This document shows positions 1,405 through 60,308 of a stretch of DNA of 64,000 nucleotides, piece by piece. Under the pieces are notes generated by a model. The model had not been told where the DNA came from. It was given only the letters and a program-made list of their open reading frames with translations, and searched no databases. The DNA comes from a bacterium. Lineage in GTDB: Bacteria; Patescibacteriota; Patescibacteriia; JAGPKW01. The stretch is from NCBI GenBank assembly GCA_021780535.1, contig JAJXYN010000011.1, forward strand, positions 15,295 to 79,294, given 5' to 3'. The translations under genes and the position numbers were made by a program. Positions within the stretch are counted from its first letter, which is position 1. Each line of letters starts with the position of its first letter.

Positions 1405-3408
1405 ATGACAAATTTTAGCAAAAAAGAATTAAGAAAATATATTCTTAGGAGCTTAATAGCGCTTGTTTCCTTTTGTTTTGTGTTATTAATAGCAATAAAC
1501 GCATATCCTATTGTTAAAATATATAACTTATCTAAATCTATAAAAACAAATTTAAATATATTCCAAACTCAATTAGAGAAGGGTGATATAAAAAATTCAT
1601 TAACCACTGCTAACTTAATAATTGGAAATTCTAAAGATTTAAGAAATAATATAAATAATCTAAAAATATTGAATTATTTACCACAGGTTAGCGATAATAT
1701 AAATTCAGTAGATAACTTATCAGAAATATTAACGTTATCTATCAATAGTTATATAGAAATATATCCAACTATAGAGAAAAATATAAATATTTTCACCAAA
1801 AAAGATAGTTCTAAAATTATATCATTGCCGAAAAATGAAAAAGCCCAAATAATAAGTAGTATAAGCAACTCCCAAGTTGCTATAAATAATATAGAAAAAA
1901 ATATTGTTAGGATAGTTTATTTAATTGATGAAAATAAAAATAATAAAAACATAGTAAAGCCAATAAAAGATGTTTGGAATAAGATAAATTCTCAATATTC
2001 AAACATTAAACTTTTGGAAAAATTTTTGCCGGTAATAAAATCCTTACCAGAAATACTTGGAAGCACAAATGATGCTAAATATTTATTATTATTTCAAAAT
2101 AATACAGAATTAAGACCAACTGGTGGATTTATTGGGACTTACGGGACCATAATGATTTCAAATGGTGAAATAGGGGAAGTCTTTACTGATAATGTTTATA
2201 ATTTAGATAGAGCATCTGCTTCTAGAGTAAAAATAGAACCACCAAAACCACTAAAAGATTATTTAAAAATTAGCAATTTATTTTTGAGAGATGCTAATTT
2301 TAATCCAGATTATGAAGAAAGTGCAAAATATATAGCCGATTTATATAAAAAAGAAAGTCAAAATCAATATCCTATAACAGGCGTAATTGCTATTACTCCA
2401 GATGTTTTACAATCTATTATTGGATATTTTGGAGAAGTTGAAGCTATGGGATTAAAATTTAATAAAGAAAACTCAACCGATTTATTAAATTACGAAACAA
2501 AATTTGGTTATTGGAAAGATAAAAACATGGATGTGAGCCAAAGAAAAATTATTATTCAAAAATTGGCTGATGTTATATTTAAAAAAATTAAATCTTTGTC
2601 GTTAAGCGACTTAAAAAACCTTGCTGGAGTTATTTCTGATAATTTAGATAAAAAACAAATGCTACTTTATTTTAGCAATAAAGATGCGCAAAATTTTATT
2701 GTTTCAAATAATTGGGGTGGTAAATTTTTAGATAGTACAAATTCTGATTATTTTTCTGTGATTGATACTAATGTTTTATCTGGGAAATCAGAACCTTATG
2801 TTGATAAGAATTTGGATTATGATTTAAAGATGGTTGGCAATGATTTGATTGCTACTTTAAGTTTAACTTATAGACTTAGATATGATGATTATCTTAAAAA
2901 TGGCATATATCAGGATAACCCAGGATATCTTCAAGAATACAAATCTTACACCAGAGTTTATGTACCAAGTGGGTCTTGGCTTAATTTTATACAAAAAAAT
3001 GATGATATAGCTACTAGAAATAATGTTGATTTTAAAGACGAAAACGGGAAAGCTTCTTTTGGATTTTATTTAACAGTGCCAAAAAATACAACTGTAACAT
3101 ATAAACTTGAATATAAATTACCAAAAGAATTAGCTGATAAATTTAAAAATAGTTATTCTTTGATATATCAAAAACAATCAGGCCTACATGGAAATAAATT
3201 AAATATCAACATTGATATAAACAAAACAATAAAATCATATACAATAACAGACCAAAATGATTTATTGATCAATTCTTATAATGATAAGTTTAATCTAAAT
3301 GGTTTTGCTGATAACGATAAGAAGATTAATATAAAATTTTATTCAGATTCAAATATGAGTTATTTAAAAGAAATAGTAAATAAAAATTATTTAACTCTCC
3401 TAAAATAA
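1405..3408 (+). CDS. DUF4012-like membrane-anchored extracytoplasmic protein (paralog 1)
   Basis: N-terminal TM helix, then a large domain with LRPTGGFIGTYG, RDANFNPDYEES and QYPITGVIAITPD motifs. About 55% identical to the next gene. The family assignment is from memory of DUF4012 proteins. Confidence 0.55.
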   Translation: MTNFSKKELRKYILRSLIALVSFCFVLLIAINAYPIVKIYNLSKSIKTNLNIFQTQLEKGDIKNSLTTANLIIGNSKDLRNNINNLKILNYLPQVSDNINSVDNLSEILTLSINSYIEIYPTIEKNINIFTKKDSSKIISLPKNEKAQIISSISNSQVAINNIEKNIVRIVYLIDENKNNKNIVKPIKDVWNKINSQYSNIKLLEKFLPVIKSLPEILGSTNDAKYLLLFQNNTELRPTGGFIGTYGTIMISNGEIGEVFTDNVYNLDRASASRVKIEPPKPLKDYLKISNLFLRDANFNPDYEESAKYIADLYKKESQNQYPITGVIAITPDVLQSIIGYFGEVEAMGLKFNKENSTDLLNYETKFGYWKDKNMDVSQRKIIIQKLADVIFKKIKSLSLSDLKNLAGVISDNLDKKQMLLYFSNKDAQNFIVSNNWGGKFLDSTNSDYFSVIDTNVLSGKSEPYVDKNLDYDLKMVGNDLIATLSLTYRLRYDDYLKNGIYQDNPGYLQEYKSYTRVYVPSGSWLNFIQKNDDIATRNNVDFKDENGKASFGFYLTVPKNTTVTYKLEYKLPKELADKFKNSYSLIYQKQSGLHGNKLNINIDINKTIKSYTITDQNDLLINSYNDKFNLNGFADNDKKINIKFYSDSNMSYLKEIVNKNYLTLLK

Positions 3409-51891: not shown

Positions 51892-52010
51892 GCTTTTTTA
51901 TAAAATAGGGTAGAGATACTCTATTTTAGTTTAATTCTTTAGTTTTTTAGTTTTGAATTTTATTTTTATTTGACGTATTATTATTTTTTGATATAATTTA
52001 AATAATAACG
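51892..52010 (+). repeat. direct repeat DR1 (terminator-like hairpin plus TTGACG-16-TATAAT promoter)
   Basis: Near-identical to 52741-52859: CTTTTTTATAAAATAGGGTAGAGATACTCTATTTTAGTTTAATT...TTTATTTGACG(T/G)ATTATTATTTTTTGATATAATTTAAATAA. Confidence 0.65.
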
Positions 52011-52098
52011 AGACGCCCGGGACAAATTCCAGGGGAAAAGATATTTCGTAAGATTTATCTACTGGGCTGTCTGGCCACCTTTGATGGTGGCTTTTTTA
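52004..52098 (+). ncRNA. candidate roughly 95 nt small RNA, cis-antisense to the 3' end of the DUF3800 gene
   Basis: TTGACG (51970-51975) and TATAAT (51992-51997) with a 16 nt spacer. Then a GC-rich segment CGAGACGCCCGGGACAAATTCCAGGGG...CTGGGCTGTCTGG ending in terminator GGCCACC-TTTGA-TGGTGGC plus TTTTTT. Confidence 0.3.
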
Positions 52099-52654
52099 GT
52101 TCTATAACTTTATATTTTAATATTTTTTTTAATATAATATTTAAATCATTGTCTAATTTATTTTCATTATCAAAATAATATCTAAAAAAACCTGCGATAT
52201 AATCAGCAATTTTTATACCTATAGAATTATTATCTTTTATGGTTCTTATTTTACTTATAGATACATTTCTATCTCTAAAGTATTTTTTAATTTTTCTATC
52301 ATATTTTTTGGATTTTTTACCATCAATAAAAACATAATTATTCTTATCATTTTCAATAAAATCAATTAAAGAGCTTTCTAATTCTTTTTCTTGATTTATT
52401 GGGTTTATTAATATTTTTATTTTAAAATTTACTTTTTGATCTGCTATTTCTTGTAAAACTCTTTTCTTAACATTCCAATTATCCTCACTCCAATGAAATG
52501 ATTTGATTTTTAATATCTTTTCTAAATCAATAATTATCTTTTCTATAAAAACATAATTATCTTCATTTATAAACACAAAAGCAAAACACGAATACTTTAT
52601 ATCTTTATTTACACCAGATTCATCTATAAATATATAAGTTTTTTCTTTTTCCAT
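52055..52654 (-). CDS. DUF3800 domain protein
   Basis: N-terminal YIFIDESG and C-terminal IKIADYIAG motifs are typical of DUF3800. The last 13 codons read through the GC-rich + strand terminator hairpin. Confidence 0.6.
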   Translation of the reverse strand: MEKEKTYIFIDESGVNKDIKYSCFAFVFINEDNYVFIEKIIIDLEKILKIKSFHWSEDNWNVKKRVLQEIADQKVNFKIKILINPINQEKELESSLIDFIENDKNNYVFIDGKKSKKYDRKIKKYFRDRNVSISKIRTIKDNNSIGIKIADYIAGFFRYYFDNENKLDNDLNIILKKILKYKVIELKKPPSKVARQPSR

Positions 52655-52936: not shown

Positions 52937-53323
52937 TTAAAACATTAACTCTCTTAGTCTTTCTTTTAATAGGGCAAAATCATCTTTTGATATATATCCT
53001 ATTTTTCTATCTATTCTTTTTGAATCTATTAATCTTATTTGAGAAAGAATTGCAAATGATTTTTTATTTAAAAATACAAATTCAAAATGATATTTATCTT
53101 TATTAACTTTACTCGTAAGTGGAATACAGACAAAAATTCTATTATTAAATTTTTTTAAAATTAAAACTGGCCTTTCAAATTCAAAACCACCACCATTTTG
53201 TTCAAAACCTATATTTTTACCTAGATTAACAAAACAAATTTCTCTTTCTTTATAGAACACTATTTTATCCTTATCTTCTATTTTCTTTTTTAGACTATTC
53301 CATTTATCAAATTCTTTTTCCAT
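52937..53323 (-). CDS. MazF/PemK-family toxin-like protein (orphan paralog)
   Basis: Paralog of 43841-44233 (EREICFVNLGKNIGFEQNG...RPVLILKK...IPLTS...SQIRLIDSKRI). Its 5' leader and first four codons are identical to those of the DUF3800 gene. Confidence 0.65.
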   Translation of the reverse strand: MEKEFDKWNSLKKKIEDKDKIVFYKEREICFVNLGKNIGFEQNGGGFEFERPVLILKKFNNRIFVCIPLTSKVNKDKYHFEFVFLNKKSFAILSQIRLIDSKRIDRKIGYISKDDFALLKERLRELMF

Positions 53324-53344: not shown

Positions 53345-53842
53345 CTATTTATTATTTCTATCCCCATTCCACATTTTTGGATTATTGATAATATAACGTT
53401 TTATTTTTAAATATTCTATTTCGTTACGAATTATATGATCATGAAATGATTTTTGCCATTTGAAATAATATGGTTTTATTTTATTGATTTCACGGGATGC
53501 AGACGATTTAAATAAACCAATGATTAATGATAATAATTGATTATTACGTTCCCGTAGGTGCCAGATTAATCTGGCACCTACATCACAATTTTTATTTATT
53601 TCAAAAATAAAATGTAAATGATTCGGCATTATACAATATTCATGTATTATTATTGTTTTATGAAAATTTTCTATATTTAATATTTTATTTTTCACAATTA
53701 TACCAATATTGTTTAAAATCATTTTATCGTTTTCAATATTTCCAAAATATGGATATCTATCACCAGTGCATATTGTAATAAAATAAAATCCATTATTTGA
53801 ATAATTCCATTTATTCCATCTGTTATTCTTATTTTGATACAT
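53345..53842 (-). mobile_element. IS200-like Y1 (HUH) transposase of the REP-associated tyrosine transposase (RAYT) type
   Basis: HUH motif MPNHLHFIF, GLFKSSASREIN, and C-terminal FKWQKSFHDHIIRNEIEYLKIKRYIINNP (WQ..FHDH.IR.E...YI..NP, the RAYT signature). A 28 bp perfect palindrome sits inside the ORF at 53554-53581. Confidence 0.7.
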
Positions 53843-54534: not shown

Positions 54535-54648
54535 ACTCATATTTATGTTGTACAAAAAATAGTTGCCCATATTTGTTATGGGCATTTTTATTTTAAAATA
54601 AAAAAAGACGCCATTGTTATTGGCGTCATCTGTTAAATCCTTACGGGT

Positions 54649-54822
54649 TTAATCCCTTCGGATTCCGTGTTCTTCAAAGGCGTCAAACGGCTTGAAATCC
54701 GTTTCGATCGTCTGGTTGGCCCCGTTGTCGCCGTCAATGTTTGCCGGCGCAGGCTTTGCGCTTTCGTCTTTTTTTTCCGTTTTGGACACTTTGTCCCTGT
54801 CCCTGTTCATAGTGATCATTGA
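54649..54822 (-). CDS. small acidic, low-complexity protein encoded in a GC-rich mini-island (57 aa)
   Basis: GGGAGGTG RBS before ATG 54822 and an intrinsic terminator 54601-54630 on the minus strand. Local GC is far above the genome background. The ORF-track start at 54885 is probably too long. Confidence 0.35.
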   Translation of the reverse strand, partial: SMITMNRDRDKVSKTEKKDESAKPAPANIDGDNGANQTIETDFKPFDAFEEHGIRRD

Positions 54823-55063
54823 CACCTCCCAAAAAAAGATGAATATCAGTATAACAGCGAATTTGTTTAAATGCAATAGTGCCAATTTTTTAAAAATGAT
54901 ATTATTGCTTTATTTTTATACACAATTATTTTATTTTCCTATTTTAGATATTATATTTATATATTAATTAGATTTTAATTTGTTTGTTAATTATCAATTA
55001 ATTTGATTAATTTTATTATAAATATTAGAATTAGATTTATTCTTAATCAATTTTTGGTATGTA

Positions 55064-59478: not shown

Positions 59479-59509
59479 GCCATTTTTTTATAATTTATAG
59501 CCGTACTAT

Positions 59510-59538
59510 TGACAAAAGTTTATATATGTGTTATCATC
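59510..59538 (+). promoter_or_regulatory. near-consensus sigma70 promoter TTGACA-17-TATCAT driving the GC-rich island
   Basis: TTGACAAAAGTTTATATATGTGTTATCAT. Confidence 0.45.
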
Positions 59539-59544
59539 TTCATT

Positions 59545-60249
59545 ACCAAGATAAGGAATGAGCGAATTCCTCAGCATGAAGTTGCGGATTCCCATTCTGA
59601 ATCTCTGGCGGCGATCCACATCCTAGTGGTTAGCGCCGAAGAACATCCCGCCCCAAACCGCATCGGGGCAGAAAAAACAAACGGAGGTGAAACAGAATGC
59701 ACTGGTTCGAACGTTGTGGGGAAGACCCCCACTCAGCTAGCAACCGCTAGCTTCTCCAACCATCGACATCCTCGGGCATCTTCGTGTGGCCGACGATCTG
59801 CTGCCGCCCCGCCAAAAAATCCTTTTCTACAATGAAAAGGGGTTGGTCAAGTTGGTCGTCACCCACACATCTATTCCTTTTCCGGCCCCTTGCTCCTCCC
59901 CGCAAGAGGCACGACCGGAGGAAGGATCTCTAGATCCCCCTAACGCGTTCCATCGCGAGCGCCCAAAATAGCCCATGAGTCATCGACCTTGTCTGGCTCT
60001 AGGTGGGCTTCTCCCCGTACGCGTCTCCTTATTGGGCCTGTGGCATATCGCCTGGCCCTACGGGACGCCCAAGAACGGGTTGAGATTCGGGCGCAACTTC
60101 CGCGCCAGCCGTGGGGGATCTCAACGCCTTCCTGCTATGGTAAAAGCAGGACATTGATTCGTCAATGCAAACTCTTATCCGGTAAGTCCCGGAACACGTA
60201 AGAGAGTTACCCCCCGATATTCAAATGAGTATCGGGGCTCTTTTTATTT
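59545..60249 (+). other. roughly 700 nt GC-rich island with many local hairpins; candidate large structured ncRNA or horizontally acquired fragment
   Basis: GC is far above the flanks. It has its own promoter and the terminator 60212-60249. Stem-loops include GGAATGAGCGAATTCC, GCCCCAAACCGCATCGGGGC, AGCTAGCAACCGCTAGCT, CCTTTTCTACAATGAAAAGG, GGATCTCTAGATCC, GTTGAGAT...ATCTCAAC and CCTGCTATGGTAAAAGCAGG. Only short overlapping ORFs in several frames. Confidence 0.35.
60212..60249 (+). terminator. rho-independent terminator closing the GC-rich island
   Basis: CCCCGATATTCAAATGAGTATCGGGG followed by CTCTTTTTATTT. Confidence 0.55.
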
Positions 60250-60308
60250 ATTTGATTTTTTTATAAAAATATGTTTTAATATCTAGTAATATTATTTCTA
60301 TATTTAGT

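Follow-up and report, generated by a model that had tools for sequence, protein, structure and literature searches.

Several families of large structured RNAs in bacteria, among them OLE (RF01071), GOLLD, ROOL, HEARO and raiA, are stand-alone RNAs of several hundred nucleotides (nt) that extend from a promoter to a terminator and appear as GC-rich intergenic islands with A-rich loops in AT-rich genomes. Another evolutionary pattern is represented by RNase P RNA, transfer-messenger RNA (tmRNA), the expansion segments of ribosomal RNA (rRNA) and the yeast telomerase RNA, which has been viewed as a "flexible scaffold": here, a conserved core is combined with lineage-specific expansions. In this study we have analyzed a 64,000-nt stretch of a Patescibacteria genome (contig JAJXYN010000011.1), which in its full length is called the window and to whose positions all coordinates refer, and we have focused on a GC-rich island located between the genes for a PLD-like protein and a GT4 protein. 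Most probably, this island encodes a structured non-coding RNA (ncRNA) that stands alone, has a length of about 700 nt and belongs to a new family restricted to a small clade of very AT-rich Patescibacteria. The family shares its promoter-to-terminator organization, its GC-rich setting and its A-rich loops with the OLE-type RNAs. However, these have a fairly constant architecture and are present in many genera, whereas the RNA described here ranges from 270 to 970 nt and was identified in seven lineages at one locus.

The island is sharply delimited by its base composition. In 200-nt windows the GC fraction increases from 0.23–0.25 to 0.46–0.60 across approximately 59500–60200 and then returns to 0.23, which bears out the original prediction of a GC-rich island at this site. 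The segment 59540–60250 has a GC content of 56–60%, as compared to 25.9% for the whole window, a value lower than the 30% that had been given for the genome. Only two stretches longer than about 110 nt have a GC content of at least 45% (100-nt windows), namely 59527–60247 and 54606–54845, the latter of which is considered further below. The island was also said to be dense in hairpins, and indeed the minimum free energy of the plus strand is -280.8 kcal/mol versus -228 ± 9.5 kcal/mol for dinucleotide shuffles (z = -5.5). Since the z-score of the minus strand is -6.0, the strand is not identifiable from the folding energy. All homologs described below fold better than their own shuffles, with z-scores from -2.3 to -7.9. 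The paired bases are G/C-rich in the window copy and in the homologs L004, L002 and L005, and the unpaired bases consist of 38–48% A and 7–10% G (38% A and 7% G in the window copy); such an A-rich, G-poor composition of the unpaired bases is usual in folded functional RNAs.

As originally suggested, the island does not encode a convincing protein. The open reading frames (ORFs) are short and overlapping, none of them has a match in Pfam, the base composition shows no dependence on codon phase (p = 0.28), and the longest stop-free run of 97 codons is within the range obtained for shuffled sequences (102 ± 25). A HMMER search with a 96-amino acid (aa) ORF against 1.84 billion representative proteins yielded a single match, which we reject as an artefact since the score of 27.7 bits had been counted eight times in a protein with tandem TIG repeats. 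A separate observation is that a perfect Shine-Dalgarno sequence, GGAGGTG, is located inside the RNA 7 nt upstream of the ATG of a 17-codon ORF (MHWFERCGEDPHSASNR; 59683–59750, plus strand), which may be due to chance or reflect a dual function. Similar mini-ORFs preceded by Shine-Dalgarno sequences are present in L004 (two ORFs, MTWT and MTWI) and in L010 (MTWMSEFP). We considered conserved micro-ORFs starting with M-T/H-W but discarded the idea, as their positions are not conserved and they are absent from L002 and L005.

Homologs of the RNA were searched for in contigs from relatives, which were fetched via the PLD-like and GT4 neighbors. RNA genes are present on the same strand at the same site, between the PLD-like and GT4 genes, in six other lineages, and their lengths cover a 3.6-fold range (Table 1). 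No such gene is present at this site in L017, L008, L018 and L014/L015. The RNA is present in all examined lineages in which the GT4 protein has at least 80% identity to the window copy and absent where the identity is at most 75%, a pattern that fits with a recent gain, or with a loss in L017. A covariance model built from the P3–P5 core described below, with L010 left out, gave one plus-strand match per RNA-bearing locus and recovered L010 at the right place (18.7 bits, E = 0.07). The same model had no match in the RNA-less loci, in L009 or L006, or elsewhere in the 64-kb window. A genome scan with the PLD alignment identified four loci, one of which has the RNA, and a metagenome scan with the block that precedes the GT4 gene recovered the L004 genome only, among the matches listed.

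Two further loci were considered as members and set aside, neither having the 3' module. In L009, a unit of about 190 nt (2612–2800, plus strand) with promoter and terminator is present at the same site; it contains hairpins that resemble P1 and P2, but no P3–P5, and may represent the RNA in a reduced or ancestral state. In L006, an unrelated gap of 299 nt occupies the site. We also note that the record for L013 (CAZHKK010000013.1) is titled "uncultured Gammaproteobacteria bacterium," although the locus has a GC content of 22% and each of its genes has a counterpart in the Patescibacteria loci; an error in binning or naming probably explains this label. A contig that encodes a PLD-like protein with 99% identity (P0002) covers only the first 60 nt of the RNA, in which it does not differ from the window. 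Contigs from several assemblies end inside the RNA gene (L003, L022, L023 and L024), the L002 contig ends just past it, and two variants of the RNA, L002 and L021 (the latter with a copy identical to that in L019), co-occur in the sample ERZ27249838. These contig ends and co-occurring variants point to strain-level heterogeneity or coverage bias at the locus.

Table 1. Predicted features of the RNA gene in the window, with the sizes of the RNA in the window and in the relatives
Feature	Position	Strand	Size	Description
Predicted sigma-70-type promoter	59509–59537	+		TTGACA (59509–59514), 17-nt spacer, TG-n-TATCAT (59532–59537), extended -10
Conserved 5' module	59545–59608	+		Starts ACCAAGAUAAGGAAU; P1 region with enclosed hairpin AGGAAU/AUUCCU
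Lineage-specific GC-rich central segment	59609–60131	+	~520 nt	Series of independently folding hairpin domains
P3 hairpin	60132–60151	+		CCUGC, loop UAUGGUAAAA, GCAGG; loop consensus yAUrGnAAA
P4 hairpin	60153–60168	+		CAUUGA, loop UUCG, UCAAUG
P5 stem	60171–60209	+		AACUCUU (60171–60177) with GAGAGUU (60203–60209), encloses P5a
P5a hairpin	60179–60194	+		UCCGG, loop UAAGUC, CCGGA
Predicted intrinsic terminator	60212–60249	+		11-bp G+C-rich stem (60212–60237), then U-run (T-run)
AT-rich block TTGATTTTTTTATAAAAATATGTTTTAATAT	60253–60282	+		TTGATT, 16 nt, TG-n-TTTAAT; outside the RNA
Window RNA			~711 nt	56% GC
L004 RNA			~970 nt	
L002 RNA			~440 nt	
L019 RNA			~440 nt	Closely related to L002; same sequence in L020 and L021
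L005 RNA			~360 nt	
L010 RNA			~360 nt	Also L011
L013 RNA			~270 nt	32% GC

The edges of the island were originally proposed to carry a near-consensus promoter and an intrinsic terminator, and both are conserved in the homologs. The promoter matches the consensus at 11 of 12 positions and is preceded by TG at the -10 element. Within 1.8 kb there are 11 promoter-like sites, versus 7.1 expected, and although this site scores best among them, the match alone is therefore weak evidence; the real evidence comes from its conservation in every homolog. The pattern TTGACAAA...TATCAT is located at an equal distance from a conserved 5' ACC in L002, L004, L005 and L019, with TATAAT and TATTAT as -10 variants in L010 and L013, respectively. 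Judging from these elements, transcription would start at approximately 59542–59545. The terminator is found at the same place in every homolog, with a stem sequence that is different in each of them. Immediately after the terminator, an AT-rich block (TTGATTTTTTTATAAAAATATGTTTTAAT) is present in L004, L005, L010 and L013, and with a few base differences in L019. This block, which is probably the promoter of the GT4-rfbA operon, is also located directly upstream of the GT4 gene in the RNA-less L017, and across the relatives it is better conserved than the RNA itself. Because the putative GT4 promoter follows the terminator and persists where the RNA is missing, the RNA appears to be a transcription unit of its own.

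Single-sequence folds in combination with the comparison of the homologs suggest that the helices are arranged in the order P1, P2, a variable segment, P3, P4, P5 (enclosing P5a) and the terminator. About the first 65 nt, corresponding to the 5' module, are common to the window copy and the relatives; here, the sequence resembles that found at the 5' ends in L005, L004 and L002. In the relatives, P1 is located at the extreme 5' end, where ACC...GAU pairs with AUC...GGU around a variable hairpin; the folds computed from L013, L010, L005 and L009, each on its own, all contain this helix, and its inner pairs covary. The predicted pairing in the window copy is between CCAAGAU (59546–59552) and AUCU-C-UGG (59601–59608). 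In L005, L004, L002, L019 and L013, P2 is a long hairpin of the form GUARAGUC-CYGA-ACUUUAC ... GUAAAGU-RA-GACUUUAC. A k-turn in the internal loop of P2 was considered and is at most a weak lead, given that the bulge has only 2 nt and L013 differs. Likewise, the idea that the P3 loop pairs with the 5' end in a pseudoknot was rejected for lack of covariation, since the loop is variable but the 5' ACCA never changes.

Further evidence for the RNA comes from the 3' part of the gene. As plain MAFFT alignments of the modules were structurally inconsistent, the P3–P4–P5 core was aligned by hand for six sequences, without gaps and with the variable loops trimmed. In this alignment, 99.1% of the cells are standard pairs and 11 of the 18 pairs have changed on both sides. 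None of 500 shuffles reached as high a value, and the pairing dropped to 27–47% when the partner was slid by 1–3 columns. All seven pairs of P5 have changed on both sides, with every cell paired, and P5a is invariant wherever it is present. Two of the five pairs have changed on both sides in P3, which also has G.U variants, as have two of the six pairs in P4, one from C-G to U-A and the other from U-A to C-G. In L010, P3 reads UCCGC/GCGGA and P4 reads ACUGGU/ACCAGU. When eight helices were counted by hand, with L010 and L009 added wherever they could be aligned, 265 of 267 pairs were standard, with compensatory changes at 22 of the 45 positions and eight G.U pairs. The latter would be A.C mismatches on the other strand and thus support the plus strand, as do the promoter and the terminator.

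Between the two end modules lies a segment that varies in length from about 16 nt in L013 to 110 nt in L005, 190 nt in L002 and L019, 520 nt in the window copy and 690 nt in L004. The window copy is long because of this lineage-specific segment, and it is the G-C-rich helices of the segment that make it GC-rich. One stem in the segment, formed by GTTGAGAT (60080–60087) and ATCTCAAC (60119–60126), had been described as a long-range pairing but is a local stem that spans about 40 nt. No similarity between the interiors was detected with blastn, and an origin of the expansion by internal duplication was rejected because no internal repeats were found in the island. The close variants L002 and L019 differ by 29 substitutions. 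When the structure is predicted from one or the other of the two sequences, seven to eight of the changed pairs remain paired; in three of these both bases have changed, and one of the three is a switch from G-C to A-U in a helix that spans 55 nt within the variable interior. Only one to three pairs are broken, versus the 7.7 ± 2.0 expected if the substitutions had been placed at random. The interior thus looks like a folded RNA that is selected to stay folded, rather than like neutral filler or a gene fragment.

Taken together, the helices of both end modules in this family are kept through compensatory substitutions, and the gene has its own predicted transcription signals and no coding signal, as is generally expected for structured ncRNAs. 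Of the two options left by the original prediction, an unclassified structured ncRNA on the scale of OLE, GOLLD or ROOL has stood the comparison as far as its class is concerned: homologs were identified in six lineages with the double changes described above, promoter, modules and terminator are shared at the same site, where a lack of conservation in relatives would have spoken for a dead remnant, and no Rfam family was matched. The size has to be revised, however, since the core of the family is about 270 nt rather than a fixed RNA of about 700 nt.

The searches against known families were negative throughout. With Rfam 15 at the gathering threshold, no match to the island was obtained and the sole match in the whole window was to the DUF3800-II motif at 52005–52076. 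With the limit relaxed to E ≤ 10, the segment 59400–60350 and the L005 and L013 copies produced only matches at chance level (for example mir-448, U6 and tracrRNA), and ARAGORN identified neither a tRNA nor a tmRNA in the window, so that the RNA is not a known one; the initial inspection by eye had likewise failed to find signatures of RNase P, tmRNA, signal recognition particle (SRP) RNA or group II introns. No covariance model for OLE, GOLLD, ROOL, HEARO, raiA or any other family in Rfam 15 matched, and no description of this RNA family was found in the literature. Nor does the gene resemble a guide array of the TIGR or CRISPR type, the island having no direct repeats and the neighbors being PLD-like, GT4 and RfbA. 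The small RNAs (sRNAs) that act as sponges, such as CsrB/RsmZ, CrcZ and 6S/Ms1, are similar in having a strong promoter and a terminator of their own, several hairpins in a row and a length that varies among relatives. They are different in that GGA or CA-rich motifs do not recur in the loops of the present RNA, which is also free of internal repeats, and the single long hairpin with a central bubble that characterizes 6S RNA is missing.

How such an RNA might work can only be sketched. It would be strongly transcribed, end at its own terminator and act in trans rather than as a leader of the GT4 gene. The conserved end modules are probably the functional core, most likely a scaffold to which a partner, either a protein or another RNA, would bind, and the central part is probably an expansion segment, free to change as long as it remains folded. 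In this respect, the RNA would resemble RNase P RNA, the rRNA expansion segments and the yeast telomerase RNA, in which conserved modules covary and inserted helices change rapidly in length and sequence yet remain folded. There is no common sequence, structure or known partner, and the analogy is to an evolutionary pattern, not to a homologous molecule. A bolder and rather unlikely version is that the RNA is a young, fast-evolving "display" scaffold, in which the end modules dock a partner and the GC-rich center is functional cargo specific to each lineage, built and replaced on the timescale of species divergence. Such cargo may for example serve as a decoy or sponge, directed at a factor of a host, a phage or the cell, or form a structural domain that assembles by itself. 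If so, this would be an unusual case of a large bacterial RNA that is born and grows rapidly in a genome under strong reduction.

Whichever version applies, the Patescibacteria have tiny genomes with little spare DNA, and a maintained, strongly promoted RNA gene of 270–970 nt is therefore likely to do something. The large length differences between RNAs with the same end modules provide a natural experiment on the growth of large structured RNAs, and the ~270-nt form in L013 defines a minimal core that biochemical studies could use. The locus also illustrates that foreign DNA is not the only possible source of extreme GC islands in AT-rich genomes. The significance of the findings is limited by the narrow distribution of the predicted family so far.

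Several observations weigh against the interpretation of the island as a structured RNA of a conserved family. The hand-fitted alignment and the trimming of the loops favor the proposed structure, a bias that the controls and the independent folds lessen but do not remove. In the window copy, the conserved P2 (GUARAGUC...GACUUUAC) is unrecognizable, a different GC-rich hairpin being located at 59609–59640, and the ancestral partner strand of P1 has two mismatches, so that the 5' module may be rewired or partly degenerate. Since no homolog was found for the central segment in the window copy, constraint on this interior is extrapolated from the L002 and L019 pair. The promoter, start site and terminator are predictions. 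Furthermore, the family consists of seven distinct sequences only, from a single locus in one narrow clade, and because relatives with the same neighbors (L017, L008, L018 and L014/L015) are without it, the RNA must be dispensable or encoded elsewhere in these. Finally, no RNA-binding protein or RNA-related gene is conserved nearby, and the neighborhood thus suggests no partner.

Among the alternative explanations, we considered that the gene encodes an ordinary small RNA and that the GC-rich center is a selfish or foreign insertion, acquired independently in each lineage at the junction between the 5' and 3' modules. Candidates would be an intron of the group I type that has diverged, a mobile element of another kind, made of RNA or DNA, or foreign DNA that was captured. 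In favor of this alternative, no similarity is detectable among the interiors in the window copy, L004, L002 and L005, the lengths of which vary several-fold, L013 as the shortest member has a GC content of 32% and a mere 16 nt or so in this place, and accessory genes (IS200-like transposase, MazF and DUF3800) are found in the surroundings. Moreover, structured RNA genes in the Patescibacteria often contain group I introns, divergent members of which are missed by the RF00028 model (PMC13011429), and these are similar in that a GC-richer structured insert is located within an RNA gene of a reduced, AT-rich genome. Yet, no match to group I or group II introns (RF00028 and RF00029) was obtained at E ≤ 10, the 16–690-nt inserts do not have the conserved core that a shared intron would have, and no exon-like host RNA was recognized. 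The interiors of 110–190 nt in L005 and L002 are too short for a group I core, judging from what is generally known about intron sizes. The island has no repeats, no terminal inverted repeats and no second copy in the 64 kb, and no donor was found: blastn searches with the interiors of the window copy and L004 against phages and plasmids gave nothing, as did scans of viral contigs for exact patterns (the P4 motif and two interior 21-mers). To this should be added the compensatory double change in the interior helix of the L002 and L019 pair. We therefore consider an insertion to be improbable.

It could also be argued that the island acts in cis, as a long leader to the GT4-rfbA operon, such as an attenuator, a riboswitch or a processive-antitermination element, with the terminator gating the read-through. 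The RNA is indeed located directly upstream of the operon on the same strand and ends in a terminator, and the 5' module of the relatives has mutually exclusive pairings, with GUAGAGU/ACUUUAC forming either a local hairpin or part of an extended P2. However, no conserved alternative pairing overlaps with the terminator stem, the promoter-like block between the terminator and the GT4 gene is retained in L017, and L008, L017 and L018 all run the same operon without the RNA. The variation in length is unlike that of known riboswitches, and no cis-regulatory family in Rfam was matched. A leader function is accordingly a very improbable explanation.

The second option in the original prediction, a dead remnant of DNA acquired from a high-GC organism, for example a host, with promoter- and terminator-like sites by chance, is if anything still less probable. 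It could account for the extreme base composition, in which C exceeds G and 56–60% GC contrasts with the 26% GC of the surroundings, for the lack of a homolog to the interior in the relatives, and for a second GC-rich unit 5 kb upstream. On the other hand, the ends, the promoter and the terminator are common to six related lineages at the same site and thus inherited within the clade, and the interior structure is compensated between sister lineages. The folding z-score of -5.5 is not expected for a gene fragment, nor is the lack of codon periodicity together with a longest ORF at chance level. No donor or protein match was identified in phages, plasmids, viral contigs, Pfam or the representative proteins, the repeat artefact aside.

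That the RNA is a very divergent housekeeping RNA, such as RNase P RNA, tmRNA, SRP RNA or 6S RNA, is hardly credible, despite the strong near-consensus promoter typical of stable RNA genes, the size of the short members (270–360 nt, as for RNase P RNA and tmRNA) and the loose resemblance of GUAAAGUCC and GGUAAGA to conserved regions of RNase P RNA, since no Rfam model of these RNAs, including those for RNase P RNA (RF00010/RF00011), matched the window copy, L005 or L013 at E ≤ 10, ARAGORN found no tmRNA and the gene ends in an intrinsic terminator, the look-alike strings form local pairs in P2, P5a and P5 instead of the P4 helix between CR-I and CR-V (the proposed RNase P-like strings GGTAAGTCCCGG, 60182–60193, and GTAAGAG, 60199–60205, are the P5a hairpin and part of the 3' strand of P5), and the gene is missing from the site in close relatives.

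We thus favor the interpretation that the island encodes a structured RNA of a new family, the surroundings of which deserve a few comments. The genes nearby encode two large proteins without clear domains, the PLD-like protein, GT4, RfbA and a PEGA-domain protein. The GT4 and rfbA genes constitute an operon for cell-envelope sugars, directly downstream of the RNA on the same strand. The PLD-like gene, next to which the RNA had been placed in the original prediction, is an incidental neighbor, as relatives with the same arrangement of PLD and GT4 genes do not have the RNA. Between the PLD-like gene and the RNA, and divergent from the latter, an ORF of 71–91 aa is located on the minus strand in L002 (7024–7278), L004 (7044–7259), L005 (2467–2694), L019 (2070–2345) and the RNA-less L017 (1075–1290), with no match in Pfam. 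It is absent from the window, L010 and L013, and this patchy occurrence indicates that the spacer between the PLD-like and GT4 genes readily gains and loses small genes. The possibility that the ORF and the RNA form a type I toxin-antitoxin pair was dismissed since the two occur independently of each other.

The second GC-rich island (54606–54845, about 48% GC) had been taken as support for uptake of foreign DNA in this region. It contains an ORF for a protein of 56 aa on the minus strand (54649–54819), with a GGAGGTG ribosome-binding site, a promoter (TTGCAT-17-TATACT) and a terminator, and its folding is modest (z = -2.1). The protein has no relative among 5.8 billion proteins and no match in Pfam, and no matching GC-rich stretch was seen at this place in L002 and L004, the two relatives that cover the site. 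This orphan gene may be an import, but it is located on the other strand, has no sequence in common with the RNA and is uninformative about the origin of the latter. It adjoins a small region of accessory or mobile character, located some 6 kb upstream from the RNA, with adjacent genes on the minus strand for a MazF/PemK-type toxin (52937–53323) and a protein with a weak match to IS200-like Y1 transposases (53345–53842), and with a gene for a DUF3800-domain protein (52055–52654, minus strand). The 3' end of the latter is overlapped by the DUF3800-II RNA (RF02961, 64.5 bits) on the plus strand, and its position opposite a DUF3800 gene may be an unusual arrangement for this motif.

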